Assembly (NCBI GenBank): GCA_039698055.1
Contig: JBDKTL010000030.1
Coordinates: 32,001 to 96,000 of the forward strand
Reading direction: 5' to 3'
Length of the DNA stretch: 64,000 bases
Source: Methanoregula sp.
GTDB taxonomy: Archaea; Halobacteriota; Methanomicrobia; Methanomicrobiales; Methanospirillaceae
Shown: piece after piece, positions 26,359 through 45,014 of the stretch
Numbering within the stretch: position 1 is the first letter of the stretch
How the letters are laid out: each line of letters starts with the position of its first letter
Made by a program: the position numbers and the translations under genes
Notes under the pieces: generated by a model
Seen by the model: the letters and a program-made list of their open reading frames with translations, nothing else
Databases searched by the model: none
Told to the model about the DNA's origin: nothing

Positions 26359-26426
26359 AATCTGACCAGAATGGCTTTAATGTTATAATAAAAAGCAAAT
26401 TGAAGCAATCCGGAAACGGGTGACCG

Positions 26427-26798
26427 ATGAAAGAGCAAACCATTCAGTTATTCACCGAGAAGGAAGAAGAATTTGTCAACCTTCTCATTGAGATCGGCAC
26501 AAAGAAGACCGTTGCACAAATGCTGGTATTTCTTGCAAATACTCCGACAGCAACATCACGGGATCTCGAACGCGGGACGGACCTGCGCCAGCCCGAAGTA
26601 AGCATAGCGATAAAATATCTGTCCGGGCAAGGCTGGATCAAAAGTGGTGAGGCCCCGTCCCAGCATAAAGGACGGCCACAGAAAATCTATTCCCTCGCTG
26701 TACCAATCAAACAAATTATTGCAGCCATTGAAAAAGCAAAGAAAGACGAGGCCACCGAACGTCTTGTTCTCGTTAAGAAAATACGAGATTATATCTGA
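26427..26798 (+). CDS. Winged-HTH transcriptional regulator (MarR/ArsR-like)
   Basis: ATSRDLERGTDLRQPEVSIA..L...GWI, KGRP.KIY.L. Confidence 0.85.
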   Translation: MKEQTIQLFTEKEEEFVNLLIEIGTKKTVAQMLVFLANTPTATSRDLERGTDLRQPEVSIAIKYLSGQGWIKSGEAPSQHKGRPQKIYSLAVPIKQIIAAIEKAKKDEATERLVLVKKIRDYI

Positions 26799-27151
26799 AT
26801 ATCCCAAAAATCCCGATTTTTGAAACCTCCGTCGGAGAAAAAGACCTTCATATTCGCGTTCTGGTGACCGTTTTGGGGCCCGGATAGGGTAAACTAGGTG
26901 GCAAAACCCGGCACGATTTAAGGGCCTTTGGTGGCTGTTATACGAGGCACAAATCAGCCGTATTTTGGCAAACGGGGCAATTATAGGGCATATTCTCCAC
27001 AGGAACTGAAAATATGGATAATCCGAGGTTTTCCGGTAGTGGCCCGGAGACGGGGGCAGGAAACGGAGCCCGTATAGGGCTTATTTCCCCTCAGGGTCCG
27101 GATCCCTCCATTTCAGGTCCTTCCGACGTGGATAAAAAGGGGAAAACTGGT

Positions 27152-27736
27152 TTACCCGCCCATTCCCGTAATCAATCCGACAATCTGCTGAGCTATCACC
27201 GGGTCCAGGACCTGAGCCAGCACCAGCCCGGCCATCGAAATGAAGAAGGTCCAGAAGACTTTCTTCACCTGCTCGTTCTTCCCGAACGCCTCGATCGCGG
27301 CGTCCGTGTCCGCCTTCATGGCTTGCTGGATAAGCTTCGGCAGGAACACGAAGAGCGGCAGGAAAAGAACCGCAGCCCCGATGAACGCGAGCGTGATTTC
27401 TGCCCGGCCCGCCATATAGATCCCGACCGGGACTGCAAACACCCCGGCCAGGATCGCGGCCATCCCGACCTCGCCGAACCAGAAGTAATGCCGCTTTTCA
27501 GCGTAGTTCAATCGCTCTGCATCCGTGAGTGAGGAGAGATCGAAGATGCCGATGGTGTTCAGCATCCCGTACCAGACTGCGTGCGTCTCCTCCGGGTCGG
27601 CAACGATGCCGAGGAAGAGGATTGCGACCGGCACCATGAGCAGGATGGGCGGCAGGTGCGCGAAGAGAAAAATGAGCGCGAGCAGGAGCCCGGTACCGCA
27701 GATGGCGGCCCGGGTCTGCACCTCGTTCTCAAACAT
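27152..27736 (-). CDS. Hypothetical multi-TM membrane protein (module gene 4)
   Basis: GGAGG RBS; about 5 hydrophobic segments; overlaps the upstream stop. Confidence 0.7.
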   Translation of the reverse strand: MFENEVQTRAAICGTGLLLALIFLFAHLPPILLMVPVAILFLGIVADPEETHAVWYGMLNTIGIFDLSSLTDAERLNYAEKRHYFWFGEVGMAAILAGVFAVPVGIYMAGRAEITLAFIGAAVLFLPLFVFLPKLIQQAMKADTDAAIEAFGKNEQVKKVFWTFFISMAGLVLAQVLDPVIAQQIVGLITGMGG

Positions 27737-28202
27737 CGCGGTCCTCCGCGATCCTGATCTCAAAGACCGGGCTGGTATATCCACCATTTGCCGGGCTGAA
27801 GTCCCGGACCCGGCCCATCTGCGCAAACTTGCGCCGGCCCGTGCGGATCTGGACTGTATGAATGCCCGGGGCCCGGGGGAACACCCGCCGCCCGTCCACA
27901 TCCCGCATGTCCATATACGGCGGGATGTCGAACCAGTCCGGCCAGAACCGGACCCCTCGCGGGATATCCGTTCCCCGGTACAGATCCTGCAAGCGCAGGG
28001 GCGACATGTTGTCGTAGATCACATCGATGATCAGGTTCTCATCATCCTGCTCCGGATGCAGGTCCAGCTCATAGAAAATCGGATTGCGCCGCACCTCGTC
28101 GCGGGTGAGCGGTTTATCCGGTGTGAGCGGTTCAAGACCGCCAAACTTTCCGCGATACAGGCCGGTCACTGTTGCGACCGGCTGCACGTTCTCATAAACC
28201 AT
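27729..28202 (-). CDS. Hypothetical soluble protein (module gene 3)
   Basis: AGGAGGAG RBS, MVYENVQPVAT start; 157 aa, beta/Pro-rich. Confidence 0.7.
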   Translation of the reverse strand: MVYENVQPVATVTGLYRGKFGGLEPLTPDKPLTRDEVRRNPIFYELDLHPEQDDENLIIDVIYDNMSPLRLQDLYRGTDIPRGVRFWPDWFDIPPYMDMRDVDGRRVFPRAPGIHTVQIRTGRRKFAQMGRVRDFSPANGGYTSPVFEIRIAEDRDV

Positions 28203-28356
28203 GATACTCCTCCTTGTAGCATTCGTGCTCGTCCCGGAGTTTCTTGAACTCCTCGACAATCTCATCATATTTGCCGATCTTCTGGTAGATGGCAAACAAC
28301 ATGGGATAGAGCGGAAGCACAGTTGCAAGCACTATCCCTAAAACTTCAATTTCCAT
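28192..28356 (-). CDS. Small single-TM + coiled-coil protein (module gene 2)
   Basis: GGAGG RBS; MEIEVLGIVLATVLPLYPMLFAIY followed by a charged helix. Confidence 0.65.
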   Translation of the reverse strand: MEIEVLGIVLATVLPLYPMLFAIYQKIGKYDEIVEEFKKLRDEHECYKEEYHGL

Positions 28357-28387
28357 GGCGGTCCTCCGCAAAAGTGACGAGAGGACC

Positions 28388-28426
28388 AAAAAGAGAGGGG
28401 ACCGGAGGTCTCCTCCCCTCCGGGTC
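28388..28426 (-). terminator. Hairpin + T-rich tract after 28444-28947
   Basis: GACCGGAGG / CCTCCGGGTC inverted repeat followed on the minus strand by CTCTCTTTTT. Confidence 0.5.
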
Positions 28427-28443
28427 GTTTCGTCAAAACGGTT

Positions 28444-28947
28444 CTAGGCGAGAGCTGCCACAGTGTCCGCCCAGGTCTCCACATTCGTCCGGATTGCGTC
28501 ATCCGAGTACGAAGTGATGGTGACCCGGTCGCGGCTGAAGTTCACCATGTAGATCTCACCGTTCGCGTCATGGCACCGCAGGGAGGCGCTGAATGCATCC
28601 TTCCCGAGATCGTGGACCACGGACCCGCCGTGAGCCGTGCTGACCGCAGCGGCAGCGAGCAGTGCAGTCACACCCGCATTGAACTTTGCCAGGGTGTCGA
28701 ATTTGTGGCTGCCCGTGCCAACGGTCTTGGCATCGGTGTCCTGATAGACGAGTTTCGCGGTGTATGCCTCCTTGGTCTTCTCGACCGGGGGGTGGCTCTG
28801 ACCTGCAGTCATATACGCTACACACTCAAAGGGATTGTCGGTGATGACCGACTGGACGATCGTGTTGAACGTCGCAACATCCACGATGGGTTCTGCAAGG
28901 GTGCGGGTCGCACTCTTGACATTTGCACTCTGTACGAAATCTGCCAT
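28444..28947 (-). CDS. Hypothetical 167-aa Ala/Thr/Val-rich protein (module gene 1)
   Basis: GGAGTGA RBS; clean ORF MADFVQ...VETWADTVAALA. Confidence 0.8.
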   Translation of the reverse strand: MADFVQSANVKSATRTLAEPIVDVATFNTIVQSVITDNPFECVAYMTAGQSHPPVEKTKEAYTAKLVYQDTDAKTVGTGSHKFDTLAKFNAGVTALLAAAAVSTAHGGSVVHDLGKDAFSASLRCHDANGEIYMVNFSRDRVTITSYSDDAIRTNVETWADTVAALA

Positions 28948-29066
28948 TCTTCACTCCCGCCCTTGGGCCCTTGGGCTGAATAATACTCTATAGGACGGGG
29001 GGCTTAGGTTTTACTGAAGGGAAGGAGAAAGGAAACCTCAAGGCAATTTAGCCACATAATTGAATT

Positions 29067-29954
29067 GTGACAGAAATCATCAAAATGCAACATTACGTTC
29101 CAAGAGTATACCTGAGAAATTTTTCCTTTGACCAAAAATCAAACGATTATGCTATTTATTGTTTTGATAAAACCAATTCGAAGGCATTCCCCGTAAACAT
29201 TTCAAATATTGCGTGTGAACGTTTCTTTTACGATATTGAAAACGACGAAGATCAGACCATCGAAAAATTACTCTGTAAATACGAAGGGGCGTATGCGGGA
29301 GTGTATAACAAGATTATCGAAAACTGGAATCTGAATTGTTTAAACAGCGATGAGAGGACAATTCTGGCATTCTTTTTCTCAATCCAATATCTCCGGACGA
29401 AAGAACAACGGATCTCCTATCGTGACGTATTCAACTGTGTGAAAGACCGGTTAACCCAACAGTGTTCGAGCGAGTCGCTCAAAGAGGACCTTGAGGCATG
29501 CGGTCAGGAATCGGTATTGAAAGAAGGACATCTAACTGTTTTTATGAAGGCCGTTCCGGAAATGGCGCAAAAATTGCTCACAATGAAATGGACATTATGT
29601 AAAAATACAACAACGATGCCGTTCTGGGCTTCGGATAACCCGATTGTGATGGATAACCATGCAGAAAATAAGTACGATCGCTATCTGGGGTATGCCTGCC
29701 CGGGAATAGAGATGTACCTTCCCTTAAATCCACAATATTGCCTCGCAATTTTTGATTCTGCGAAATATCATGTGCTGCCGGGCATCATGGAAACAAAAAG
29801 CATCGAGAATGTAATTTACAACAATTGTCTGCAACTCATGAACTCCACACGGTTCATTTTCTCAAATACCGAAGACTTTTCCTATGCCGAGAAATTCCTG
29901 GAGAAAAAACCTGAATACAAAAGTGTTGATCGGCAGAGGATCTTTCCTCCGTGA
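29067..29954 (+). CDS. DUF4238-domain protein
   Basis: QHYVP..YLRNF, FY, E..L...E, Q.LRT, F..SDNP, YLPLNP..CL. Confidence 0.85.
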   Translation: MTEIIKMQHYVPRVYLRNFSFDQKSNDYAIYCFDKTNSKAFPVNISNIACERFFYDIENDEDQTIEKLLCKYEGAYAGVYNKIIENWNLNCLNSDERTILAFFFSIQYLRTKEQRISYRDVFNCVKDRLTQQCSSESLKEDLEACGQESVLKEGHLTVFMKAVPEMAQKLLTMKWTLCKNTTTMPFWASDNPIVMDNHAENKYDRYLGYACPGIEMYLPLNPQYCLAIFDSAKYHVLPGIMETKSIENVIYNNCLQLMNSTRFIFSNTEDFSYAEKFLEKKPEYKSVDRQRIFPP

Positions 29955-30282
29955 TACCCCTTACAGAGCATCCTCTTCATTTCGGATCTGGTCCTCGATG
30001 AACTTGCGGATCTCCTCTTTTCCCGGGAGCCCAAGCTGATACTTGGAGACAAACAACTGGTTGTCCATACTTCTTCGTCCGCAGGTGATTCACTCATACA
30101 ATCTCCAAAAACTCTGAGTATTATTAAAGACAGTGTATCGCAATTCGAATCAAATAATTTTGCGTAAACCATTATTATTTAGAGGATATCTCCTCCGTAT
30201 GTCTCCAATTGGGAAGACCGGGGAAGGTACTCATTACATTTTAAAAGGGCGCCAAATGGGCTAAAGAGGCACAGAAGGAGTA

Positions 30283-30396
30283 TCATTGAGGTACCACCCA
30301 TACAGCCCCTATCCCGGCAACCGCCATCTCGAATCGTTCCGGCCCATCCCCGAAATAGAACCGTGCCGGTGAAAATATCGGTCCTGACTCATCCCC
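30283..30396 (-). pseudogene. C-terminal remnant of the adenine MTase gene
   Basis: Translates GDESGPIFSPARFYFGDGPERFEMAVAGIGAVWVVPQ*, versus GDEGPGPTFSPALFYVGDGPERFEKAFAEIGAVWGVPKV* in 32605-33120. Confidence 0.85.
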
Positions 30397-30443
30397 CTGA
30401 TAAGGGCCTAAAAAAGGAGAGAAAAAGTTATAACAATAAGATA

Positions 30444-32372
30444 TTATTTGGGAAGTAAGACATTAATTTTTTGAAATAATGCAGCCGCCCTATCGATTGT
30501 GGCAACGTCGATTTTTTTGAGAAGATCGGATTGCTCATTCAGCAGAAAAACCGCTGGTAGATAATGATTGAAATGGCCTCCCGAAATAGCTTGGAGTTTG
30601 AAGTATTCCTCGATTCTCTTGACAATCCGGGGATTTTGGTTTGTAAAGGATTTGAGGGTTAATTTTTGAGATAATTCTTTAGGGTAAGCACCATTAACTA
30701 AATTCAAATAAAACTGGGGTTCGAATAAATCTTCAATATCGGCATCTTTTGCCCCGGTTATCTCACCGATATTGATCAGATTTTTATTACCGAGGAAATG
30801 GTTCCCCTTTAAATTTTTTATCCGCTGTTTATCTCGTTCTGAAATATCTATCAAAACGGCGATGTTCAATTCATTCGCTCCCAGTAATGATACGAATGTT
30901 GAAACCTTATCTGCCCCACCAACGGGGGTCACTACCCAGCGGGGATCCAGACCATTTTTCCCATGGCTGATTACAGCCTCACTTAAAATCTTCAGATAAA
31001 TCAAATCTGATGGGCCTTCTACGAGAAGACAATTGGGACCAATAAACAAAGTTTGGGCAAGATCATATCCAAGTGCCGCCTGAAGAGGGAATATTGTATC
31101 TTGATCATTTCGTAATATATCCTCACTAATTTTTGTTCCTTTTTCATCCACATCTTGAACAGTCCTGACGCTGGTCAATGCATTTGGATCGATCATGAAC
31201 GGTGAATGGGTTGTATATATCACCTGATGTTTCGGGGCAAGACGTTCATCGATAAACCTGAGAAAGTCCCCTTGAGCTTTTGCATGCAGATTTAATCCAG
31301 GTTCATCTAGCAAAAGGATCAAATCTGCGTCACTTCGCTCGATTTGGGAGAAATATGCAAAGAATGAGAAAAACCAGATAAATCCCCGTGATCTTTCATC
31401 AAAAGGCACAGTAACCCGGTGACGGTTGTTCTTAATTCTTACGTGGAGGATAGGACCATTATTCAACGGGGGCGGATCGTTTGGATTTGCCTGGGAGATA
31501 TCGAACTCCACTTCAAGCTGTTTGTTCTGAGTCCAGTATTCAAATACCTGATCGGAGATACTGATTGATGCGGCTTCTAATTCCGCTTTCAGACGTTCAT
31601 AATTTGTTACACTCTCAAAATCCTCAAGTTTGTTATCAGAAAGTGATAACAGCGCTAAGAAGGTCCGATCTGCTTCATCAGTTTGATTTTGATCTCGCCG
31701 CGTTTTGAGGAAAGGAATTGAAATACGTCCTTTCATTGTGCAATAATCATCAAAATACACAAATTTTGGAATAAATTTTGTGAGAAATTCATTGATAATA
31801 TACTCATTCAGCCCTTTTGGAAATCGGGAATTAACTGTGGTCAAAAGAGTATTGGCCACGACTTGGCTTTCTTTATTCTTTTCAAGGAGTTCTTTAAATT
31901 CGTCGAGTGTCTCAATATTCGTAGCCTGTTTTTTTACGTCGTCCAACAATTCAGATGTGATTAGCATATGCTGGACTGCTGTCTTCTCATCTGTTTGTAA
32001 ACTCCACACACGGGAATTTTTGAAATTTTTAGTCACTTTTACAATATTGGATTTTAAAGCATTTTTTCCAAGGACAGATTCAATTTTATCAATTTCCTCT
32101 TTTAAAAGTTCAAATTCAGCAATTACAACCACAGCGGGAGTTTTATCATGAATTTGTTTGTACCTTGTATATCCTTTTCTTGGATAGTCCATGATATCGA
32201 AATTTCCATTTGCACCCTCAACAGGACTTAATTTTTGTAAAGCCTGAAGAAACGCAGTTTTACCGGACTCGTTTTTACCGACAAGGCATGTGACCGTATC
32301 AATTTTTACGGGGTCTGAATCATCAATACTCTTAAAATTTTGTACATGAGCGGTGATTAATTTCATAATCAT
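30444..32372 (-). CDS. OLD-family-like ABC ATPase + TOPRIM nuclease
   Basis: NFKSI, LVGKNESGKT (Walker A), LLLDEPG (Walker B), YTTHSP, LLVEGPSD (TOPRIM), DIEDLF. Confidence 0.85.
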   Translation of the reverse strand: MIMKLITAHVQNFKSIDDSDPVKIDTVTCLVGKNESGKTAFLQALQKLSPVEGANGNFDIMDYPRKGYTRYKQIHDKTPAVVVIAEFELLKEEIDKIESVLGKNALKSNIVKVTKNFKNSRVWSLQTDEKTAVQHMLITSELLDDVKKQATNIETLDEFKELLEKNKESQVVANTLLTTVNSRFPKGLNEYIINEFLTKFIPKFVYFDDYCTMKGRISIPFLKTRRDQNQTDEADRTFLALLSLSDNKLEDFESVTNYERLKAELEAASISISDQVFEYWTQNKQLEVEFDISQANPNDPPPLNNGPILHVRIKNNRHRVTVPFDERSRGFIWFFSFFAYFSQIERSDADLILLLDEPGLNLHAKAQGDFLRFIDERLAPKHQVIYTTHSPFMIDPNALTSVRTVQDVDEKGTKISEDILRNDQDTIFPLQAALGYDLAQTLFIGPNCLLVEGPSDLIYLKILSEAVISHGKNGLDPRWVVTPVGGADKVSTFVSLLGANELNIAVLIDISERDKQRIKNLKGNHFLGNKNLINIGEITGAKDADIEDLFEPQFYLNLVNGAYPKELSQKLTLKSFTNQNPRIVKRIEEYFKLQAISGGHFNHYLPAVFLLNEQSDLLKKIDVATIDRAAALFQKINVLLPK

Positions 32373-32604
32373 TCCTCTTGTTTGATCGGCGACTGATCAA
32401 GATCTGATTACTATTCCTCTATCTGTTGTCATTTATAAACGATATGGGATATGATGCGTTATCATTGTGATATATTTTTAGTATTCGGTTCACAATGTGA
32501 AAATAACAAAAGGGTATTTTTTCGATTATAATTTTTTAGAATTCTGAAAAGAATCGTTTCTGGAAGAATGTTATGAGGTGAAAATTTCATTTCTCAGCAT
32601 CTAT

Positions 32605-33120
32605 TCAGACTTTCGGCACACCCCAAACCGCCCCGATCTCAGCAAACGCCTTCTCGAACCGTTCCGGCCCATCCCCGACATAGAACAGTGCCGGTGAAAA
32701 CGTCGGACCGGGACCCTCATCACCAGCAGGCCCCACAAACCGGATCCTCGCAGAAGGAAAACATACCCGGCACGATATCGCCGTCAGCGTCTTCCATGCA
32801 GCAGTCTCGGTCGCCGATTTCCACAGTACAATCGCCTCCGTGGTCCGGCCTGCGGACCGCTCCAGATATAATTTCGAGAACCACTGCTCGACACCGGGCC
32901 CGAACGGGGGATTAAGAAACACCCGTCCCGACCAGGGCTGCACGAGCCCGTTGTCCTGAGCTGTGTAATGCCTCGCTGCCGGCACGTTCGGGATCTCCCG
33001 GCAGTTGCTGGCCGGGTCCAGATCGATTGCGCCCATGCACGCGATCACTGCATCGAGGATGTACTGCGGCGTGTAATGCTCCGTGCTCTCGTGCGAAAGA
33101 AGGGCTGGAGGGACGGTCAT
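32605..33120 (-). CDS. Phage-type DNA N6-adenine methyltransferase
   Basis: EHYTP, IDLDPAS, DNGL.QPW.GRVFLNPPF, RIRF. Confidence 0.85.
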   Translation of the reverse strand: MTVPPALLSHESTEHYTPQYILDAVIACMGAIDLDPASNCREIPNVPAARHYTAQDNGLVQPWSGRVFLNPPFGPGVEQWFSKLYLERSAGRTTEAIVLWKSATETAAWKTLTAISCRVCFPSARIRFVGPAGDEGPGPTFSPALFYVGDGPERFEKAFAEIGAVWGVPKV

Positions 33121-33330
33121 ATGATGAGATGATGTGTAAAATCACCGGCTTAGTCTTTACTGAAGACCGGGACGCAGGACGGGGACACAGAAATCGCACA
33201 TAATATTAAAAAGCATATTTACATCCGCCACTCAATATCTCTTATTCATCTCAGCAAAATCCTCTGACTCCCGGGTGAGGATAAGCACGATTATGACAAC
33301 GATAACGACGACAACAAGCAGGACAACAAC

Positions 33331-34776: not shown

Positions 34777-34815
34777 GACGGTTTCTTTCAACCAGCAACT
34801 GAAGATCGGGAAAAA

Positions 34816-34882
34816 TATGGGACAATTATGAGACATATGAGACATGTGTGATATATGAGACAAGTATGGGACATATGAGACA
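34816..34882 (+). repeat. Tandem 9-bp repeat TATG(A/G)GACA, 7 units
   Basis: Units at 34816, 34827, 34836, 34845 (degenerate), 34854, 34865 and 34874. Confidence 0.85.
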
Positions 34883-35040
34883 TGCATCAAACAAAATCCC
34901 CGTGGGGGAATGGGGCCATAAAGGGGCCTAAGGGGCCAAGATTCAATAGATATTACCCCGAAATTGAGGGATTGAATCGATGATTTTCAGTTTCACGCCA
35001 CAGGACATTCATTTAATGACCATGTGAACCGGACGATCTA

Positions 35041-35925: not shown

Positions 35926-36771
35926 ATGAGTGAAAAATTTACTTACGATATTCCCGATTCAAATCTATATCTCAAAGGAGTGATAGCTCTACTTCGATCA
36001 AAAAATGAGATAAAAATTGCTGATCTTCTTATTGGTTGCAAGTGTGACATTTCGCACGCTTCCCAATTTTCTCGAAGAAGATATGATGCCTTCTATACCT
36101 GGATTAAATTCTACGTCCCTCTCTCAAAACTCGAATCTTTCTCAGAATATGCAAAACATAGAATTCTCGAAGAATGTAACGCGGCAATGCCGGATATATC
36201 GGGACTCGATGTAATGAAAATTGAAATTTCACCACTGTTGGAGGAAATTTCAGAAGAACCAACACTTTCCGTCGATTTAGAGAAGATATCGGCTGAATTA
36301 ACTAACAAATTCGCTCAAATTCTGCCACCAGAAATCTTGAATAATGGAAAAGAAATGGCGGAAGTTTATTTGTATCTTTATTGCATCGAGAACAGTTTGA
36401 GAATCTTCATCGAATCCGTTGCGAAAGAAAAATATGGTGATGACTGGACATCCAAATTAAAAATGAATCGTTCAATCAAAGATAGTATATCAAGACTCAG
36501 AGATCTGGAAGGTCGCAATAAATGGTTGAGCATACGAGGTAAATCTGAATTATTTTTGGTCGATTTCAAAGATCTAGGATCCATCATTTCCCAAAATTGG
36601 GATATCTTCAAACCACATTTCCCTGATTTGAACTGGATTGAATCTAAAATTGGGGAGTTAGCCCAATGTCGCAATCTGGTTGCACATAATAGCTACATTG
36701 ACGACCACGAAAAAGATATAATTCGAGTGAATTATCGAAGCATTTTGAAACAAATCGGTGTAATCGAATAA
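35926..36771 (+). CDS. Swt1-like HEPN domain protein
   Basis: YLYLYCIENSLRIFI, DF.DL..II..NW..F, RNLVAH (Rx4H). Confidence 0.8.
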   Translation: MSEKFTYDIPDSNLYLKGVIALLRSKNEIKIADLLIGCKCDISHASQFSRRRYDAFYTWIKFYVPLSKLESFSEYAKHRILEECNAAMPDISGLDVMKIEISPLLEEISEEPTLSVDLEKISAELTNKFAQILPPEILNNGKEMAEVYLYLYCIENSLRIFIESVAKEKYGDDWTSKLKMNRSIKDSISRLRDLEGRNKWLSIRGKSELFLVDFKDLGSIISQNWDIFKPHFPDLNWIESKIGELAQCRNLVAHNSYIDDHEKDIIRVNYRSILKQIGVIE

Positions 36772-36780
36772 TTTTTCCAC

Positions 36781-39700
36781 TCATACTAAACCCACTTTCC
36801 GTGCATCATCCCGCACGCCTCTCCCGTAACAATGCTCGCAGAGCTTCACGCCCATCTCGCGATCCAGCCACACCGCCTTCGCAATCCCGCAGACCGAGCA
36901 CTTCCCGATATCCGCCGTCACCCGGCTGCACCGGGAGATCTCCACGGCCCCGGGCAGCGGGACCGATGCGGTCTGTTCCGTTTTTACTGCCTCGTTGAAA
37001 CATGAGCGGCAGATCCGTCGGGCCTCCTGCTGGTCCCTGGGCCGGGCCCGGCGCTCTTTGGTATATTTTTCAATATACCGGGAGCCTTTCTTTCCGCAGG
37101 CATAGCACGGTGTCTTCGGCTCCGGGATCTCGAGTTTTTTGTAATCACCGGCCCTGATGGACCGGGGCGGATCCTTGTTTACAGCAGGGGGTGGGGAATC
37201 CGGGCTCGTTTCAGCAGTTTTACAGCATGTGCTGTAAGAGCCCGGGGAGACCGGTGGGGCCGGATTCGGCTTTTGAACCGCTCCGGTCAGAGATCGTTTT
37301 TTATTTACAGCATTTTCAGAATCATGAAGACACTGATCTGTATCTTTTCCGGAATTTTGACCGTCTCCATAATTCCGGTTTTGCTGTAAATGACCATCCT
37401 TTAGTACAGAATTATTTGTACAATCATCTTCTTTGCAGGAACCGGGCGCACCGGGTTTACCATTTTGATTTACAGCAGTTGCTGTAAAACTGCTGTAAAC
37501 GTGCTGTAATGCTGTAAATGAACCTGCGCCGCCATCCTCATCGCTGTCCTTCGGGTCATGATCGAGCCAGCAGGCCCCGCCGTTCGCCCACTGCCGGAAG
37601 ATCTCGCGGCTCCACGTAAATGCCTCGGTCCTGCGCCGGACTGAAACGCCCTCTTCATCATTTATCGTCACCGTCCGGTCCGTGAACGAGAGGGCCGGGC
37701 ACTTCTCCAGCAGCCCGGTGTAATTCTTCCCCCGGCTGTCGTAGCCTTTGATCATCCGGTAAATGCCCATGTAGGACCCGCCTGTGAATCGCTGGAGGTC
37801 CTGGATAGTGAACTCCGGTTGGTCGGCCTTCTCGATGATGGCGAGCAGGTCAGACTCTTTCTTCGTCATCTTTGATTCCTGCCCGCCCGCGGTCCCGTTC
37901 AGGAGCGTGAAGACATCGTTCGCGGCCGAGAAGTCGGCCTCATTCGCGTACACGCAGAGCGTCCCGTCCTCGCTCGTCTTCTGCTGCCGCTGCATGAAGA
38001 AAAGGGCTGCGTGGCTTTTGATCAGGTCGTAGAGCATGTCGGGGTTGCGCCGGTTGCAGATGGCGTTGAACCGGATCCGCTTCGAGTAGGGGATGATCAC
38101 CCAGATCATCTGCTCGTGCAGGATCTCCCAGATTGCCCTGCAGGTCCTCAGCTCATCTGTCTCTTCAACGAACAGGTCCGGGTCCAGCATCTCGCGGGCC
38201 TGCTTCGCCTCAAGTACCCGGGCGTCTTGCTCAGCTGACTCATCGATCCAGCAGGTCAGCATCCGGTTCATCACCTGATCATCGCCAGTCCCTTCCTTCT
38301 TCGCAATCCACCAGACGCACCGCTCGGGGATCGTGCAGACCCGCGAAGTCAGGTCCTTCGTGACCGTCGTGTGCGTAATCGGTTCGTGAAAGTTCGAGGT
38401 CGCGGATTTCAGGATCTCCTGAATGCCGTCCGAGAGTTCGGTGTCGTCGCTCATCAGGACCGTGCGAGGCCGGAGGTCTTTCATGTAATAGAGCGCCTTG
38501 TTGCTCACCGTGCCTTTCACCTTGTACGCATCCGGCACCTGGCGCATCATCTTCCGGAAGGCATGGGTCTTGCCCTTGCCAGAATCACCGGTCACGGAGA
38601 CATGCAGCCCGTCCGAATTCTTCACGGCTTGTGATGCCATTGAGAGGACCATGCACCGGGCTACGATCTCGTCGCCAACATGCTCCTGGGCGAAGGTCCG
38701 GAGCATCAGGGCCACCGGGTCGCCATGTTCGAGCACATCGAGGGCCGCTGCCCGGTTGTCGGGTGAGCCCGCAACCGGGGCCGAGCATGGGTCGGTTCTC
38801 CCTTCTTGCTCAACCTTTGCCCGGGCCCGGTCCTTCCGGGCGGTCTGCTGTTTTTGCTCCCAGCCCTTCCGCTTCGTAGCCCGGTCCGGCTCATACCGCT
38901 CGCGGAGCTCCTGCCAGCGCTGCGTACCGCCTCCGCAGGACGTGTGCTTGCAACCGGCGAAGACTGCGCCGTTCCCGAACTGGATCGCAAAGCCCCCGTC
39001 CTTGTGCGCTGACGAGAACGGGCACTGGTCGAAGATGAAGAGTGTGCCGCCGCTGTACGGCTTCTCGGTCCTGACATCGAGGCCGTGGTCTGCGAGCCAG
39101 TGGCGCAGGTCGAAGCCCTTGCCATTCACCGTTGCCGGCTGCGGCTGTGCGTGCTGTTCGGTCGGCAGCCGGGCCGCGAGATCCCTGAGCTGTTCCGCTG
39201 TCGCAATCTTCAGCTCATCCGGGGCCGAGATGATGCGGCTCCTCCGGTACGGACGTTCCGGGGTGTTGTCACCCTTCCGCGATATCGTACCGTAGAGTTT
39301 CCAGATGCGGGCCGCGTTGAAGTTCGCAGTATCCACGTTCACCCGCTCATCTGAGAAGAGCGTGTCGAGCGTTGCGAGGCAAGCCTTCACGAGTGCTGTT
39401 GCTGCTTCATCGTTCGGCAGATCGATGCGGTACAGAAGGTGGGCCCCGTTGCCGGAGTCGGCCCGGACCGGTTCCGGGAAACCTAGCCCGGCCATCCACC
39501 GGGCAATCTCTTCGGCTTTTGCCAGGGCCAGCCCGTGCTCCTCATCAGTACTCGACACACCACTCGGTCGCAGCGGGTCGATGTCGATCGGCAGCCAGCG
39601 GCGGCGCAGGATATCCGCATCGCTCGTCGTGCTGTCCTTCTTGCCGAGCCGCATCTTGATCCGGTTCGCCCGGCGCGAGAGCAGGGCCGGGTTCACCTCG

Positions 39701-39882
39701 TTCAGCGTGACGTAGATGCCGTGTACTGAACTGTCTGTATCCAGCGGCTCAACGGCCTTGATGAGCGCAGCATGATCACTGAAGTAGCCGCTGTGGGTGA
39801 ACTGGTCGGTGAGTGCCCGGACCTCGACGACCTGCCAGGGCCCGGCTAATCGGGCAACGGCATCACGGAGCAGACCATCCAC
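36781..39882 (-). CDS. Primase-polymerase (AEP-like) / P-loop helicase replication protein
   Basis: WLPIDID and DSGNGAHL (AEP motifs), CPF..H...CKH..C zinc motif, GDSGKGKT Walker A, C-terminal CxxC pairs. Confidence 0.8.
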   Translation of the reverse strand: MDGLLRDAVARLAGPWQVVEVRALTDQFTHSGYFSDHAALIKAVEPLDTDSSVHGIYVTLNEVNPALLSRRANRIKMRLGKKDSTTSDADILRRRWLPIDIDPLRPSGVSSTDEEHGLALAKAEEIARWMAGLGFPEPVRADSGNGAHLLYRIDLPNDEAATALVKACLATLDTLFSDERVNVDTANFNAARIWKLYGTISRKGDNTPERPYRRSRIISAPDELKIATAEQLRDLAARLPTEQHAQPQPATVNGKGFDLRHWLADHGLDVRTEKPYSGGTLFIFDQCPFSSAHKDGGFAIQFGNGAVFAGCKHTSCGGGTQRWQELRERYEPDRATKRKGWEQKQQTARKDRARAKVEQEGRTDPCSAPVAGSPDNRAAALDVLEHGDPVALMLRTFAQEHVGDEIVARCMVLSMASQAVKNSDGLHVSVTGDSGKGKTHAFRKMMRQVPDAYKVKGTVSNKALYYMKDLRPRTVLMSDDTELSDGIQEILKSATSNFHEPITHTTVTKDLTSRVCTIPERCVWWIAKKEGTGDDQVMNRMLTCWIDESAEQDARVLEAKQAREMLDPDLFVEETDELRTCRAIWEILHEQMIWVIIPYSKRIRFNAICNRRNPDMLYDLIKSHAALFFMQRQQKTSEDGTLCVYANEADFSAANDVFTLLNGTAGGQESKMTKKESDLLAIIEKADQPEFTIQDLQRFTGGSYMGIYRMIKGYDSRGKNYTGLLEKCPALSFTDRTVTINDEEGVSVRRRTEAFTWSREIFRQWANGGACWLDHDPKDSDEDGGAGSFTALQHVYSSFTATAVNQNGKPGAPGSCKEDDCTNNSVLKDGHLQQNRNYGDGQNSGKDTDQCLHDSENAVNKKRSLTGAVQKPNPAPPVSPGSYSTCCKTAETSPDSPPPAVNKDPPRSIRAGDYKKLEIPEPKTPCYACGKKGSRYIEKYTKERRARPRDQQEARRICRSCFNEAVKTEQTASVPLPGAVEISRCSRVTADIGKCSVCGIAKAVWLDREMGVKLCEHCYGRGVRDDARKVGLV

Positions 39883-39932
39883 ACGTCACCACCCGGGTCC
39901 CTGCTCTGGTCTGCGGTGAAAAAATTACCAGG

Positions 39933-40172
39933 TCAGCCATGCCCGTCGCCTTCTTCCGGGGCAGGCTCCTCCTGCCTCACTCGCTCCGCGTGCTCATCGA
40001 AGGTCTCGACCTTCACGGTATAGCGGTGATGGAATTTTCGCTCGACAAAGATGTGAAAGACCGATTCGCCCTTCTTCTTGATCAGGTCCGCGATTGCTTT
40101 CGGGATCAGGTAGAGCGGGATGCCATCGACTTTTTCAGTCATGACTGCCGGCTTCTTCTCCTCAGTGGGCAT
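39933..40172 (-). CDS. Hypothetical protein
   Basis: GAGGTG RBS inside the upstream gene; part of the coupled operon. Confidence 0.6.
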   Translation of the reverse strand: MPTEEKKPAVMTEKVDGIPLYLIPKAIADLIKKKGESVFHIFVERKFHHRYTVKVETFDEHAERVRQEEPAPEEGDGHG

Positions 40173-40533
40173 AGGCAGCCACCTCGCGGATCTCGTCCGG
40201 CAATATCTCGTAACAGTGGAGGGAGCCGTTGGGCGAACTCACCCAGAGCTCGCAACGGATGAAGATGTTGCCCGGGTACCGGGTCAACAGCGAGCGGAAC
40301 TGGCAGATCTCGAACCTGCAGAGCGATTCAACGTACGGGATGTTCAGGGCACCGGTCGCGGTCCGGAGTTTGACACCCAGGATCTCGTAATCGCCCCGCA
40401 ACCCGACAAGATGAAGCGGGATGTACTCTGCAAGAAAACTGCTCCCTACCGGCAGAACCGGCTCGTAGCCCCGGGAGACGAGGAGTTCCAAACCCCGCTG
40501 CCGGGAGGCGGACCGGGCGCTCTGCGCCATCAT
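40162..40533 (-). CDS. Hjc/PD-(D/E)xK-fold-like protein, degenerate active site, paralogue 3
   Basis: LELL.SRGYEP..PLHLVG..GVKLR..ELWV..YEI..DEIREV. Confidence 0.65.
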   Translation of the reverse strand: MMAQSARSASRQRGLELLVSRGYEPVLPVGSSFLAEYIPLHLVGLRGDYEILGVKLRTATGALNIPYVESLCRFEICQFRSLLTRYPGNIFIRCELWVSSPNGSLHCYEILPDEIREVAAYAH

Positions 40534-40946
40534 ACAGCACCCCCATCACCACCGGCGTTTTGCCCGCGACACAGGATCTCCCGGATACCGTCGCGGGTAA
40601 TTTCGAACTGCTGGAACTGCCGTGAGGGAATCGAGATCCAGACTTCGAACCGGGAAGCCAGAAGGCCGGAAGGAAGCTGTAAAAAGAATTTCTTCATCCG
40701 CCCCATCTCATCCCGGCAGAACTCCTCGGCATCACTCAGCGAGACAAGGGGACGAAGGGAGATCTTCAGTTTCACCATCACATTGTCAATGGTCCCATCG
40801 TCCAGTTCCTTGCGTGCGGTCAGGTTGTAGGGGATGTACCGCGAAGTCCGGACAATGTCGCTGACTATCATCGGCTCGTAGCCCAGGCTGAGCAGGATGT
40901 TTCCCGCCTGTTGCTCCAGAACATGGAAGCGGTGGACGGCACTCAT
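40530..40946 (-). CDS. Hjc/PD-(D/E)xK-fold-like protein, degenerate active site, paralogue 2
   Basis: LEQQA..LL.LGYEP..PYNLTA..MVKLK..EVWI..FEI..DGIREI; ATGA overlaps. Confidence 0.65.
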   Translation of the reverse strand: MSAVHRFHVLEQQAGNILLSLGYEPMIVSDIVRTSRYIPYNLTARKELDDGTIDNVMVKLKISLRPLVSLSDAEEFCRDEMGRMKKFFLQLPSGLLASRFEVWISIPSRQFQQFEITRDGIREILCRGQNAGGDGGAV

Positions 40947-41347
40947 GCCGCACCCCCGGAGTGCGATGCTACGGATCGGTACAGCGAGCGTTTCGGGATC
41001 TCCCGGATGCTGTCCCTCATGACCTCGAAGCACCGGAATCCGTAGGTCAGCGAGTAGATCCAGATCTCGTAATGATACCCGGCTTCCCCGATGTGGCGGG
41101 CGATGTGCTTGCGGAACTGCGAAAGGTCAATGCCGCATTTCTGCATGACCATATCGACCGTTGAGGGGAGATGGGAGAATTTACGGATGCGGATGAACCG
41201 TTTCTCGCCGGAATCCCGCTCCGCGACAAGGTGGGCCGGCGGCTGGTTCTTGTTGAAACCGGGCGGGATGACCTGGACCCGGTAACCATGCAGCCTGAGG
41301 AGCTCGCGGGCCCCGTCCTCGATGAGCGTTCCGCGACGGCTGGTCAT
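40943..41347 (-). CDS. Hjc/PD-(D/E)xK-fold-like protein, degenerate active site, paralogue 1
   Basis: IEDGARELL..HGYRV..PAHLVA..FIRIRK..EIWI..FEV..DSIREI. Confidence 0.65.
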   Translation of the reverse strand: MTSRRGTLIEDGARELLRLHGYRVQVIPPGFNKNQPPAHLVAERDSGEKRFIRIRKFSHLPSTVDMVMQKCGIDLSQFRKHIARHIGEAGYHYEIWIYSLTYGFRCFEVMRDSIREIPKRSLYRSVASHSGGAA

Positions 41348-41712
41348 GATGCAGCACCTCCCTTGTGCGGCGTAAGTATTTCCGGTTCCGGTACATCTCC
41401 CGGGACCTCGAAGAGAATGCAGGAGACGTCTTCGCCGAGCGCAACCGCGATGAACCGGTCGCGGGGGAGCATGTACCGGACACTGCCGACCGAGATAATG
41501 ACGGCCCGGCCCGAGGGATTGAGGGAAACCAAGCCGGATGCGACCGGGTTACCGGACGGGTCCGGGTTTTTCTGCAGCAGGGGGATGGTCTCTCCGACAA
41601 ACAGTAGCATCCCCATATCTTCTGGGCGGATGAAATACGATTTGTCCCAGATCCGGATGTGGACATAGCCGTCGCTCCCGGTCAGCACGATACCGGCGGA
41701 GAAATGGCTCAT
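41344..41712 (-). CDS. Hypothetical protein, homologue of 8220-8573
   Basis: SGRAVIISVGSVRYMLP...ALGE; GGAGG RBS. Confidence 0.7.
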   Translation of the reverse strand: MSHFSAGIVLTGSDGYVHIRIWDKSYFIRPEDMGMLLFVGETIPLLQKNPDPSGNPVASGLVSLNPSGRAVIISVGSVRYMLPRDRFIAVALGEDVSCILFEVPGDVPEPEILTPHKGGAAS

Positions 41713-41840
41713 ACTGATCCTCCCGCCAGCCTGCCTCCTTCAGTGAGGAATTTAAAGATGGAAATAGAAGTATCTATGGCAGTCTCACGGCGTGACTGGG
41801 TAAGTTTTGTTTGTGAGCTGCCACTGGTTATTGCGTGCAT
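41709..41840 (-). CDS. 43-aa hypothetical protein (not in ORF track)
   Basis: AGGAGGT RBS; ATGA overlap with the 41712 start. Confidence 0.5.
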   Translation of the reverse strand: MHAITSGSSQTKLTQSRRETAIDTSISIFKFLTEGGRLAGGSV

Positions 41841-41983
41841 GATACCTCCTCTTTTGTGACGATCTTCCAGCGCCCGTGTTCAACCATCTTCTTCCCGATG
41901 CCATAGAAGCCGGACCGCTTCTCGTAGGCTTCCACGGCTTCCTGCGTTACCCGCAGGGGTTCGCGATTTATTGTGTTCTGCAT
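41828..41983 (-). CDS. 51-aa basic hypothetical protein (not in ORF track)
   Basis: GGTGA RBS; MQNTINREPLRVTQEAVEAYEKRSGFYGIGKKMVEHGRWKIV...; overlaps the next gene. Confidence 0.55.
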   Translation of the reverse strand: MQNTINREPLRVTQEAVEAYEKRSGFYGIGKKMVEHGRWKIVTKEEVSCTQ

Positions 41984-42688
41984 GTTTTCACCGACTTTGT
42001 TAAGTTGTGTTCAGCCACATTCCCCAATTGTTGAAACGTTCTTTTTCCCTCGTGTCACGCAAAGCAACGGCTATCATCCGGTCAGATGCCACTCTCCTCG
42101 AAACGGCAGGTGGCCTATCGGATCAAAGCAATAAGCGGATCACGGTTAACGATTGCCTGAAATCTACAGACTATCACCAAAAAAAGTAAAGAGCGAGAAT
42201 ATCGGGGAGTGGTTGCCTGTCAGCCGGCAGCACTGGCCCGTGTTCTTCTTACATCCTTTTCCGGACGCCAAGCTGTTCATCCTGACCCGGCTCTTTTGCA
42301 ATGCAACCGGTTCGGGCCGACGGATCAGGGCCGTGATCTTCGTCGTGATCGAAGCCACTGCGGTCTTTATCCGGCTGCCCGCCTTTTGGAGGAAGTCCAA
42401 CAGCATTGTAATTGTTTTATAAATTCGCAGTTGTTTAAAGTGTTTTCTGAACCAGCGGGTTACATGGGCGCTTTTTGTCGTACACGTGTAACACAATTGG
42501 CAGATTTTACTGCACCAGAATGCCAAGCGCGGCTGGAATTATTGAGAAATGGAAAAGCAATACTTTGAATTTTTCAGTCAAGTACCAGAGGGTGCGGGAG
42601 GTGCCGCAAATTTTGTGAAGTCATTAATGCGAGTGGATGGCAAGTAGAAAGGTAAAAACGGATATATATCGAAGGGATAATTTTAGAT

Positions 42689-43654
42689 ATGGTCTTTGGG
42701 AAGAATTTTTTGAAGTCTATTACTTCATTCTTTCCAGATCGAGAAAAAGTTCTTGAAGAGATTGAAGATTTGAAGGTAACTTGCGAACTTGAAACGGCGA
42801 AGATCGGGTTCGGTTTTTTGTTTATTGTTGTTTCAGCATACGGGCTTCATAATTTGGTTACTCCAATAATCCCAGAAATGCCATCCTGGGGTTTTACATT
42901 ACTCTTTTCATTACTTTTCAGCTTGTTGATGTTTGGTCTTAATTTAACGATCAATGGATTAACTTCGAACGCTGCCAGAAACAAAAAATTCCAAGATGGA
43001 GTAAATAGAAAATTAGAGGCTTTAATCTCAAGAGGAACTCCACCAGAGAATATCCAAGAAGCTGAGGAAACTATGACTTCCCAAGAGAAAAGTAACAAAT
43101 TTGGTGAGACACTCATAAAAATAGGATTTGCAGTTTTCATAGTAGTTTATATCATTTGGTTTGTCTGGACAATGAGCCAGCATTCGAATGATTCGCAATA
43201 TATTACAACGGCCATTCTTGCAATTCCAACATTAGTTGTTGCAGTGGTCACGTACATGTACGTTTTATTGACAAGGGATCTTGTAAAAATTAACCAAGAT
43301 CTTGTCAATGCCCAAAAACAGCCAATATTTTCACTTGATATTGAAAATAGGGAAGGATGCCGTGTTGTTAACCTGTGGAATACCGGAGAAGTCGCAAGAA
43401 ATGTTACGATTATCTTTACTGCCAATTGGGATTTTCAACAGCCTTCAATTAATCTCCTCTCTCTGAAGCGAGATTCGCAATGTGAATTATTGGATAATAT
43501 AAGTCAAATTTTAGGCAATGGTCATATTTGGACGGTAACGGTTGACTATGAAAACATTTTCTCGCAACATTTCCATGAAGTTTTCCCACTATCTAATGAG
43601 AAGTTGCAATCTCTGGGAACCACTCGAATAATAATACCTGGTGGAGTGCTATAA
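42689..43654 (+). CDS. AT-rich hypothetical membrane protein
   Basis: 321 aa, four TM segments plus a soluble C-terminal domain. Confidence 0.7.
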   Translation: MVFGKNFLKSITSFFPDREKVLEEIEDLKVTCELETAKIGFGFLFIVVSAYGLHNLVTPIIPEMPSWGFTLLFSLLFSLLMFGLNLTINGLTSNAARNKKFQDGVNRKLEALISRGTPPENIQEAEETMTSQEKSNKFGETLIKIGFAVFIVVYIIWFVWTMSQHSNDSQYITTAILAIPTLVVAVVTYMYVLLTRDLVKINQDLVNAQKQPIFSLDIENREGCRVVNLWNTGEVARNVTIIFTANWDFQQPSINLLSLKRDSQCELLDNISQILGNGHIWTVTVDYENIFSQHFHEVFPLSNEKLQSLGTTRIIIPGGVL

Positions 43655-43719
43655 GAGGTTGAATTTCATCGTCGAGCAACTAGGTTATGGGGGAATTCGT
43701 ATAACCCCCCGTAAAAAAA

Positions 43720-44952
43720 TTATAATTCCCCTTTCCTCTTCATCTCCGCAATCCTTTCATCAATCAGCTGCCGCAGAATATCCGGGTTGTCCCTGAGGAC
43801 GCTCTGCTGGATTCCCTCATCGGTATCGATCACAACATCGGAAAGATGCTGGCCGCACGAGAAACAGTAGTTTGAGGTGGGAGGATTGATCTTCCGGCAG
43901 TGCGGGCACTGGATCGGTTCCAGCCGTGATGTTGCATTTCCGTTATCCACGACAGTTATCCCGTAGGATTTGAGCATCGCAGAATCGATATCCTGCCCGG
44001 TGAGATGGGCGTAGGTCCGGAACATATCGGTGCTGATGTTGCCCCACATCATGAGCTTGATCACGCTTTCCGGTACTTGTTCCTTGATGAGATGCGTGAT
44101 ACGGCTGTGCCGGAAGATGTGGGGTGTGACATGTTTCTCAATGCCCGCATGCCTGGCAATAACCTTGAGATGCTTGTTGATGGTCGCATGGATGAGAGGT
44201 TTGCCATGCACGTTCACGAAGACCAGCGCGTTCCCGCTCGGGTCCGGTTTGTAGCAGGCCCGCCACTGTGCCAGGTATTCGTTTGCCATTATGAGCCGGA
44301 CGTACCGGGGCATGTTGGTCTTGAAGTTCACGTTCGCAATGACACCGTATTTATCGAACGTGAGATCGCCCCAGGTCATGGTCCCGATCTCGCCAATGCG
44401 GAACCCTCCTTCGTACAGCGTCATGATGAGAGCCCGTTCCACGGGGCGGGTGCACGCTTTGATCATCGCGGTGATCTCGTCCGGTGTCAGCAAGTCGGCG
44501 GCCACCTTGGTCATAGGATCCTTGGCGGGTATCCGGAGTTTGCGGAGCTTGGTCTCGCTGAGATCTGAATACTTGTTCTCAATCATCCAGAGGTAGAACT
44601 GTTTGAGGATGGCAACGAAATCGCTGATCGTGTTCTGCTTGAATGGGCGCTCACGGCTGCTCTTTGCATTTCTCAATTCTGGAATCGCGGCGTAGAGATC
44701 ACCGATGGTGTTGCTTGAAAACGGCCCGATGAACCGGCGCCAGCCCACGAGAGTAAACGTGAGTTTGTTCGCCCGCCCGGTGCTGATGTTCTTGCAGGAC
44801 CGGAGTTCCGAGACGAATTCCCGGATCTGGGCAGCGTCAGCCTGGGTGAGGGTGAATTTCTCAAGGGCGTGCCTGATTGAATTTTCTGCCAGTTCATTCC
44901 TCATTGGATGGAAAGTACTGGCTGGAAGTACTTGAGCGACTGGGTAAGTCAT
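43720..44952 (-). CDS. Tyrosine recombinase/integrase with C-terminal zinc ribbon
   Basis: YEGGFRIGE (R), KT, TPHIFRHSR (HxxR), TYAHL (Y), CPHC...CFSCG. Confidence 0.92.
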   Translation of the reverse strand: MTYPVAQVLPASTFHPMRNELAENSIRHALEKFTLTQADAAQIREFVSELRSCKNISTGRANKLTFTLVGWRRFIGPFSSNTIGDLYAAIPELRNAKSSRERPFKQNTISDFVAILKQFYLWMIENKYSDLSETKLRKLRIPAKDPMTKVAADLLTPDEITAMIKACTRPVERALIMTLYEGGFRIGEIGTMTWGDLTFDKYGVIANVNFKTNMPRYVRLIMANEYLAQWRACYKPDPSGNALVFVNVHGKPLIHATINKHLKVIARHAGIEKHVTPHIFRHSRITHLIKEQVPESVIKLMMWGNISTDMFRTYAHLTGQDIDSAMLKSYGITVVDNGNATSRLEPIQCPHCRKINPPTSNYCFSCGQHLSDVVIDTDEGIQQSVLRDNPDILRQLIDERIAEMKRKGEL

Positions 44953-45014
44953 AGAAAAGTTTCTGAAATAATGGCTTTAAAAAGGAAACTGAAGCATCGA
45001 ACTTCGCGTCCAGA

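Follow-up and report, generated by a model that had tools for sequence, protein, structure and literature searches.

The DNA analyzed here is a 64-kb window (64,000 nt) of Methanoregula sp. contig JBDKTL010000030.1, to which all coordinates refer unless another contig is named. It carries an integrated element of about 18.7 kb (26290 to 45014) that abuts the 3' end of a tRNA-Leu(CAA) gene (45015 to 45097, minus strand; found by ARAGORN and scoring 52.8 bits against the Rfam tRNA model). This is the only tRNA in the window, and a search for hidden RNAs with Rfam at E values up to 1 over positions 24000 to 47000 returned the tRNA alone. From the tRNA 3' end leftwards the genes are ordered as an integrase, a segment coding for the membrane protein m321, a five-gene operon, the replication protein gene (Rep), a p263/HEPN pair, a DUF4062 gene, Dam, OLD, DUF4238, a distal gene trio, and mreA; the host thiamine-synthesis genes ThiN and Thi4 lie to the left of the element and PolD to the right of the tRNA. 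An earlier note on this DNA had described a tRNA-Leu-integrated element with an integrase, a coupled operon, a primase-helicase-type Rep, a methyltransferase, and a helix-turn-helix (HTH) regulator, and all of these genes are present. Its observation of a GC-richer backbone with AT-rich cargo also holds, with GC fractions of 0.54 to 0.61 in the backbone (Rep 0.60, Dam 0.61, operon 0.59), 0.39 to 0.43 in the cargo blocks, and 0.53 in the host flanks. As that note had also reported, no capsid, terminase, portal, relaxase, or VirB4 gene is recognizable, there being no match to such families among 18 open reading frames (ORFs) in Pfam, NCBIfam, and PHROGs; seven ORFs of the element have no family match at all. 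We label the genome of this strain G000 (an assembly that is 93% complete) and its contigs C##, the genomes of relatives G###, and metagenome loci L###.

The right end of the element is sharply defined, with homology to G009, which is the relative closest to it on the PolD side, breaking off precisely at the 3' boundary of the tRNA at 45015; the G009 sequence that follows the tRNA matches a different contig of G000. The left end, which had been placed at 26370, lies nearer 26290. An independent copy in G109, at a tRNA-Leu(CAG) and with the same gene order including the distal mreA, matches the window only from about 26289 rightwards, and an RNA-library contig (X15) departs from the window at 26290, where it has a loose end. 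A contig of G034 keeps the ThiN flank and 67 bp further, to 26356, and two metagenome copies part from the window near 26363. A second apparent recombination breakpoint thus lies within the terminal region at about 26356 to 26365, which leaves an uncertainty of about 80 bp in the left end. At locus L123 (G034:C728, 161 to 214), the ThiN flank and the common 67 bp run into a tRNA-Gln 3'-end fragment and downstream sequence as found at the second G000 element on contig C16 (described below), an arrangement that suggests rearrangement between elements at different tRNAs.

The integrase gene (43720 to 44952, minus strand) is intact, lies 62 bp from the tRNA 3' end, and codes for a 410-amino-acid (aa) tyrosine integrase with a C-terminal zinc ribbon (Pfam Phage_integrase, E = 3e-25; DZR/Zn ribbon; NCBIfam XerA-like; phrog_1), in which the catalytic R, HxxR, and Y residues are present when the translation is read by eye. 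G000 has four integrase paralogues, the one in the window and three others, and each adjoins a tRNA gene in the same orientation. A same-strand tRNA lies within 300 bp of 16 of 23 metagenome integrases (Thr-TGT in seven, Leu-CAA in six, Leu-GAG in two, and Leu-CAG in one), and related copies occupy six or more different tRNA genes. We also note a 9.9-kb island (G000:C38:15258-25132) with a clean 18-bp tRNA-Thr attachment (att) repeat and no Rep, carrying a paralogous integrase (41% identical) and a 1603-aa STAND-like NTPase; this integrase family is thus found on a non-replicative defense island as well.

Rep (36781 to 39882, minus strand; 1033 aa) appears to consist of a primase-polymerase-type N-terminal domain, a Zn motif, a helicase-type P-loop ATPase, a variable linker, and two C-terminal Zn ribbons. 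An alignment of 11 Rep proteins (48 to 82% identity) has invariant WLP(I/V)D(I/V)DP (containing a DxD, DIDP), SGNGAHLLY, NFNA.RIWKLYGT, and NFNAARIWKLYGT motifs, together with an invariant Cys/His cluster, the Walker A motif G(D/E)SGKGK(T/S), a DDT Walker-B-like motif, and two C-terminal CxxC pairs. Archaeo-eukaryotic primases (AEPs) have a DxD, an sGxGxH, and a third acidic/basic motif on the AEP fold. For residues 5 to 352, the identity is 47% with an ORF on the Methanomethylovorans plasmid pMETHO01 and 41% with a Bacteroides phage protein that carries the annotation 'DNA directed DNA polymerase', and the N-domain precedes a helicase domain in nine of 10 IMG/VR homologues (D5_N/DUF5906/Pox_D5 in five, VapE in three, and AAA_25 in one), which is the position of the primase domain in primase-helicases. 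We propose from these motifs and relatives that the N-terminal domain is of the primase-polymerase type. The ATPase part (residues 374 to 727) is related to an 805-aa ORF of the 4.44-kb plasmid pMTBMA4 (tblastn E = 2e-10, 23% identity) and also matches the 'putative Rep' of a 4.9-kb archaeal plasmid; its precomputed Pfam family, PF27228 (MTBMA_p00010_2nd), is named after the pMTBMA4 ORF.

The Rep gene also contains an iteron-like array of 10 copies of TTACAGCA in 339 bp (37179 to 37517; six on the coding strand and four inverted), located in the stretch that codes for the poorly conserved linker. In the 64-kb window as a whole the word has 12 copies, 10 of them in the array; 0.85 would be expected, and none of 100 shuffles reaches 12. 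Seven of 13 Rep genes have eight to 11 copies at the same place, as TTACAGCA, TTTCAGCA, or TTGCAGCA, with a single form in each gene, and four of the remaining six have five to seven copies of ACGGAA in the same stretch. A recognition pair of Rep and iteron would be expected to give such a concerted one-base change in every copy, and the fact that the iterons vary together with their Rep implies that selection still acts on origin and Rep as a pair. We infer that the array is the replication origin.

Upstream of Rep is a presumptive early operon of five coupled genes (39933 to 41712, minus strand) with start/stop overlaps of 4 to 11 nt. The first gene, p122 (41344 to 41712; 122 aa by its name), has no match in Pfam, NCBIfam, PHROGs, or PADLOC, and is followed by three translationally coupled paralogous small genes (40162 to 41347) whose products of 134, about 138 (listed as 167 from a GTG start), and 123 aa are 27 to 30% identical. 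The last gene, p79 (39933 to 40172), lies directly upstream of Rep and has only a faint PHROG match, to a dsDNA-binding protein (E = 0.008). Relatives have two to five copies of the paralogues (alignment A5). A UPF0102 reading of these paralogues was rejected, as the best PDB profile match, 3fov at E = 0.89, is not evidence. A non-coding block of about 65 nt upstream of the operon (42166 to 42230, minus strand) is 80 to 92% identical in 10 genomes of the genus and is also found on contigs with no other match to the surrounding stretch. No RNA structure is supported in the block (-3.1 kcal/mol, with 0 compensatory pairs); it seems promoter- or operator-like, its minus strand reading like a BRE/TATA (B recognition element and TATA box) promoter of the early operon.

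These backbone genes hold together as a unit, as the earlier note had supposed, in 11 genome copies and in the 77 metagenome contigs with close Rep relatives, and the tRNA-integrase-first order is kept throughout. Among the metagenome loci, p79 is found no more than 400 bp upstream of Rep in 46 of 47, p122 within 2.9 kb upstream in 38 of 43, the early-operon paralogues upstream in 37 of 43, and the integrase within 10 kb upstream in 19 of 28, with a same-strand tRNA beside the integrase in 16 of 23. Downstream of Rep, Dam is found within 6 kb in 32 of 45 loci, and p167, the first trio gene, within 10 kb in 10 of 39, paired with p157 in seven of 39. The 11 genome copies are of two types. Type A copies have the early operon and are located at tRNA-Leu or tRNA-Thr, and in type B copies, at tRNA-Gln, the integrase, Rep, and Dam directly adjoin one another. 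The complete trio is present in six of the 11 copies and mreA in four. G000 itself carries a second copy, of type B (G000:C16:21857-41326), at tRNA-Gln, with an integrase, a Rep about 50% identical to that of the window, Dam, mreA, and the trio, and without the early operon; its cargo is metabolic, not defensive, and codes for a major facilitator superfamily transporter, MarR, DUF169, DUF2193, a short-chain dehydrogenase, and a radical SAM/SPASM enzyme.

In the genus, 24 of 41 genomes have Rep matches, as many as 19 in a single genome, and many of these matches are fragments with stop codons. A Rep profile extends the family to 115 of 201 genomes, 30 of 40 genera, and all six families sampled of the order Methanomicrobiales; the names of homologues, where given, are Methanoregula or Methanoregulaceae. 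We found no description of this family in the literature, a search in which subscription journals and supplementary files were outside the scope, and passages of PMC9796341, PMC5862659, and PMC8609365 hold no account of it.

Between the backbone genes are three cargo slots, one separating the integrase from the operon, one Rep from Dam, and one Dam from the distal trio. The first holds m321, a 321-aa membrane protein gene with four hydrophobic segments in its product (42689 to 43654, plus strand), in an AT-rich segment (GC 0.43). It is found at the same place in four metagenome loci, and one landfill contig (X13) joins 41825 to 43717 and so lacks the segment. In the second slot are a HEPN (Swt1-like) protein gene (35911 to 36771, plus strand; Pfam HEPN_Swt1, E = 7e-11; PADLOC candidate PDC-M34B, E = 4e-37) and its upstream partner p263 (35041 to 35832, plus strand; 263 aa), which has no match in Pfam, NCBIfam, PHROGs, or PADLOC and accompanies the HEPN gene in L179 and L180 also. 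A semi-conserved accessory gene (33331 to 34776, plus strand) codes for a 481-aa protein with DUF4062, HATPase_c_4, and a C-terminal HTH (Pfam; phrog_12156; partial PADLOC matches to pAgo-associated proteins), and it is present in many relatives in varying positions. At the junction of the DUF4062 and p263-HEPN cargo, there are six same-strand copies of ATGRGACA in 66 bp (34817 to 34882, plus strand). Arrays of this kind adjoin Dam or DUF4062 in five of the 77 metagenome loci and follow mreA in L197 and L218; they are possibly recombination or binding sites at cargo junctions.

The backbone gene that separates the second and third slots codes for an orphan N6-adenine DNA methyltransferase of the Dam type (32605 to 33120, minus strand; Pfam Dam, TIGR01712, phrog_111, PADLOC oMTase), with an NPPF motif evident by eye in the translation. 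The third slot has an OLD-family ATPase-TOPRIM nuclease gene related to AriA, Old, and GajA (30444 to 32372, minus strand; AAA_15, E = 1e-23; OLD TOPRIM; AriA, E = 2e-27, and Old, E = 7e-23, in PADLOC) and a DUF4238 gene (29067 to 29954, plus strand; Pfam, E = 2e-46; PADLOC candidate DUF4238-Pers). On the far side of OLD is a duplicate of the Dam 3' end (30290 to 30384, minus strand; 83% identical to 32615-32709), which marks cargo exchange by recombination anchored in Dam. Cargo-specific contigs with zero or one difference from the window occur in sequencing runs of three separate studies, and the backbone bins have a several-fold higher summed depth; where an RNA run leaves cargo bins uncovered, this indicates no more than the presence of a different variant in it. 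Of the sampled words, 14 runs from seven studies contain half or more, and six of these runs may be the source of this DNA.

These cargo genes are candidate anti-virus genes, and defense cargo in hotspots beside an integrase and a primase-helicase-type Rep, with no capsid genes, is the layout of a satellite, an element that would provide its own integration and replication and depend on a helper virus for packaging and spread; the size of 18.7 kb is compatible with this too. Satellites such as P4, the phage-inducible chromosomal islands (PICIs), and Sulfolobus pSSVx/pSSVi share the combination of integrase, primase-helicase-type Rep, defense hotspots, and absence of capsid genes. The element differs from them, however, in having no recognized packaging or capsid-redirecting gene and no known helper virus, and, its proteins of unknown function aside, none of its genes resembles a capsid-remodelling, small-terminase, or virus-derived packaging function. 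G000, at its 93% completeness, has no match to HK97 capsid or terminase families (Phage_capsid, Terminase_6N, TerL_ATPase), so any helper would be external, and the up to 19 Rep matches per genome, many of them decayed, fit the dynamics of plasmids or islands at least as well. The earlier note had inferred a possibly undescribed satellite or virus-like family; no helper-hijacking or virion gene is recognized, nothing points specifically to either a satellite or a virus, and we regard dependence on a helper virus as improbable.

The four-gene module of the earlier note is present as a distal module of three genes, for proteins of 167, 157, and 193 aa, at 27152-28947. The first, p167 (28444 to 28947, minus strand), codes for a soluble alpha/beta protein of no known family. 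It has 1264 homologues, and among the best 120 almost all are 167 aa long and none has a Pfam domain. Its AlphaFold2 (AF2) model has a predicted local distance difference test (pLDDT) score of 88, and no capsid-like match to the model was found in PDB or BFVD. The CYTH and START/TBP-like readings of its fold were rejected: Foldseek gave template-modelling (TM) scores of only 0.2 to 0.3, to CYTH/TTM enzymes, and the best Z in VIA-align was 8.1, which is the stated background level. The second gene, p157 (27729 to 28202, minus strand), could be extended to 199 aa from an upstream TTG, although Protein Atlas has the 157-aa form; it has 809 homologues without a Pfam domain, the named ones from Methanoregula or Methanoregulaceae, and its AF2 model (pLDDT 40) is unusable. 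The third, m193 (27152 to 27733, minus strand), codes for a polytopic membrane protein with four hydrophobic segments and a conserved start, MFENE, and its start overlaps the p157 stop. G000 has eight p167 copies, some of them solitary among host genes; solitary paralogues that are 40 to 69% identical and have no element gene nearby are located at C10:52963-53463, C9:26025-26525, C35:3549-4049, and C12:5724-6212. Beyond the trio, mreA (26427 to 26798, plus strand) codes for an MreA-family winged-HTH regulator (NCBIfam NF053756, 134 bits against a cut-off of 100) and is found at the same distal place in G109, L197, and L218.

The trio raises the question of whether the element is a provirus of an undescribed archaeal virus family, with p167, p157, and m193 as structural proteins. 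Small archaeal viruses, for example pleomorphic and spindle-shaped ones, build their virions from a few small, unrecognizable proteins, and the trio would suit such a role in being strongly conserved (1264 homologues for p167 and 809 for p157), in being complete in six of 11 genome copies, in including a membrane protein, and in having in p167 a protein without known fold or family. RNA-library contigs cover the trio region as well, which is a weak point in favor given that contig depth cannot rank genes and RNA libraries can hold DNA. The trio is not universal, however, as the metagenome counts show, and it is absent from the 16 to 22 kb downstream of Rep in G037 and G119; p167, moreover, is also found by itself, surrounded by ordinary host genes. 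The element has neither a packaging ATPase nor a large spike-like protein, and single-protein queries of IMG/VR found no close relative of Rep or p167, with the Rep alignment as query recovering relatives of the N-domain only. We thus consider a provirus unlikely. It is similarly a long shot, if a more far-reaching one, that these are Methanomicrobiales-wide capsid-less replicons spreading by an unrecognized route, with the trio forming a minimal virion or a DNA-loaded vesicle. Were it true, the trio would define a new archaeal virus-like or 'plasmidion' lineage and not a plain integrative plasmid.

The integration site is polymorphic. The tRNA-Leu(CAA) gene lies beside PolD in 20 of 29 relatives' loci, a synteny that rests on a DNA search, the PolD_C protein query having served as a position marker only. 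In none of the 13 loci where 1 kb or more can be read beyond the tRNA is there an integrase at this place, and seven metagenome contigs have the order PolD, tRNA-Leu(CAA), element. G010 carries an integrase at tRNA-Leu(CAA) that is 81% identical, and its copy has lost Rep. An empty site with both flanks adjacent was not found among the relatives, in which ThiN orthologues do not neighbor tRNA-Leu. Two side observations concern this region. In L191, a 176-bp direct repeat (4515-4689 and 6773-6945; 91% identical), made up of 92 bp of upstream sequence and the whole tRNA-Leu(CAA) and ending exactly at the tRNA 3' end, flanks a 2.1-kb insert before an integrase-less copy of the element. The PolD large-subunit gene (45272-49180), which adjoins the tRNA, has a translation that by eye looks as if an intein-like insert is present.

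This polymorphism bears on whether the element is a fixed genomic island, a relic that is no longer mobile and is kept for its defense cargo. Such a relic would explain why recognizable att repeats are lacking, why contigs show integrated forms only, why relatives have many decayed Rep fragments with stop codons, and why the G010 copy at the same tRNA is without Rep. Against this, every backbone ORF of the window copy is intact, the iterons change in concert with Rep as expected under ongoing selection, the tRNA-Leu(CAA) site is empty in the 13 relatives with a readable flank, near-identical cargo contigs recur in three separate studies, and related copies are found at six or more tRNA genes. 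Fixation is therefore doubtful, and we rate it no higher than dependence on a helper.

Taken together, the element is probably an integrated copy of a self-replicating plasmid-like element, of the kind referred to as a cryptic integrated element (CIE) or integrative plasmid. It has an integrase, its own Rep, and insertion polymorphism, no viral or conjugation hallmark genes, and no att repeats that could be found. An integrative conjugative element is not indicated, with no VirB4/TraG-type ATPase, relaxase, or mating-pore family among the element ORFs in Pfam and NCBIfam.

Several results weigh against an integrative plasmid. No tRNA-derived att repeat was found at the window copy by searching with 25-nt and 21-nt tRNA pieces at up to three mismatches, by blastn-short, or by Smith-Waterman alignment, nor was a tRNA-derived direct repeat found at five other Rep-bearing copies or, except in L191, in the metagenome loci searched. 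By eye, (C)AGAT, of 4 to 5 nt, is the sole sequence common to both junctions in G000 and G109. A terminal repeat reported earlier (26370-26407 and 44970-44996) is real, if weak and degenerate: its local alignment score is 43, and the highest score among 200 shuffles was 38. The repeat is internal to the element, however, does not derive from the tRNA, and coincides in part with TATA-like stretches that precede mreA and the integrase gene. No circular form was seen: none of the 77 metagenome contigs has a terminal overlap, which gives no support to a satellite or virus either, and those that reach the integrase end start with a tRNA gene. Likewise, no joint linking both element ends is among the contig joints listed, which come from contigs, in which rare forms are dropped, and not from raw reads. 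Sequence and profile searches of solved structures in PDB gave no relative of Rep, whose primase fold is putative, and a local copy of Pfam gave P-loop matches below threshold only. The spacer matches that the earlier note had looked to did not materialize: a simple finder detected no CRISPR array in G000, and no convincing spacer-like match to the element emerged when 40 relatives were searched at the DNA level, so that there is no independent sign of hosts treating it as an invader. Finally, the conservation of the trio is unexplained, so that it might conceivably serve in a virion or in transfer.

If the element is an integrative plasmid, its life cycle might run as follows. The tyrosine integrase would insert it so that it abuts the 3' end of a tRNA gene, in this case tRNA-Leu(CAA) next to PolD, with different integrase lineages using different tRNAs. 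Once excised, the circle would rely on its own Rep for replication, with the N-terminal primase-polymerase-type domain making primers, the pMTBMA4-type P-loop ATPase acting as helicase or initiator, and the C-terminal DNA-binding modules recognizing the 8-bp iterons within the Rep gene as the origin. The five-gene operon upstream and the orphan Dam downstream would complete the backbone, in whose three slots AT-rich cargo could be taken up and swapped between copies by homologous recombination anchored in the backbone genes. Passage of the circle from cell to cell, by some route, is presumed.

The kind of element is thus not new, whereas the family, which is widespread, apparently is. The earlier note had suggested an undescribed family, and in this respect it stands, but the kind was already described as cryptic integrated elements, which were defined, under that name or as integrative plasmids, for Thaumarchaeota with a median size of about 17 kb (Krupovic et al. 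2019, PMC6563490). The likeness includes a tyrosine integrase, tRNA-associated integration, a similar size, restriction or defense cargo, a Rep that is a primase-polymerase fused to a helicase, and the absence of viral or conjugative hallmark genes (PMC6563490). The element described here differs in its host order, with no shared signature gene shown; in the helicase part of its Rep, which is pMTBMA4-like and not a recognized superfamily-3 helicase; in its origin-like iterons inside the Rep gene, conserved early operon and distal trio, and lack of detectable att repeats; and in the far greater prevalence of its family across its order.

A second point of comparison is pMTBMA4 of Methanothermobacter marburgensis (NC_014409.1), whose only large ORF shares the PF27228-type ATPase domain with Rep. 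The similarity is restricted to the ATPase region and excludes the N-terminal primase-type domain, and pMTBMA4 is a free plasmid with four annotated ORFs and neither integrase nor cargo, in contrast to the larger, integrated, integrase-bearing element. The location of the putative origin has a precedent in phage lambda, where ori-lambda lies within the initiator gene O. There too, short repeats of the initiator-binding type are embedded in the linker-coding part of a replication gene, although the proteins are unrelated, the host here is archaeal, and the 8-bp words occur in both orientations, with binding only putative. We take pMTBMA4 to be the same, or nearly the same, as pME2001. The latter serves as the replicon in a shuttle vector, as reported in PMC8609365.

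The Rep gene with its built-in iteron array is likewise a compact candidate replicon for a shuttle vector, and the concerted one-base iteron variants offer a natural handle on Rep-origin specificity and incompatibility groups. Methanomicrobiales are major producers of methane in digesters, wetlands, and landfills; to our knowledge their mobile elements are almost undescribed, and we know of no plasmid vector for them. More than half of the sampled genomes of the order carry this Rep family, frequently in multiple copies, and the same element variant is found in sludge, wastewater, and landfill metagenomes from several studies. With its swappable defense genes, the family probably shapes both virus resistance and genome rearrangement in these archaea.

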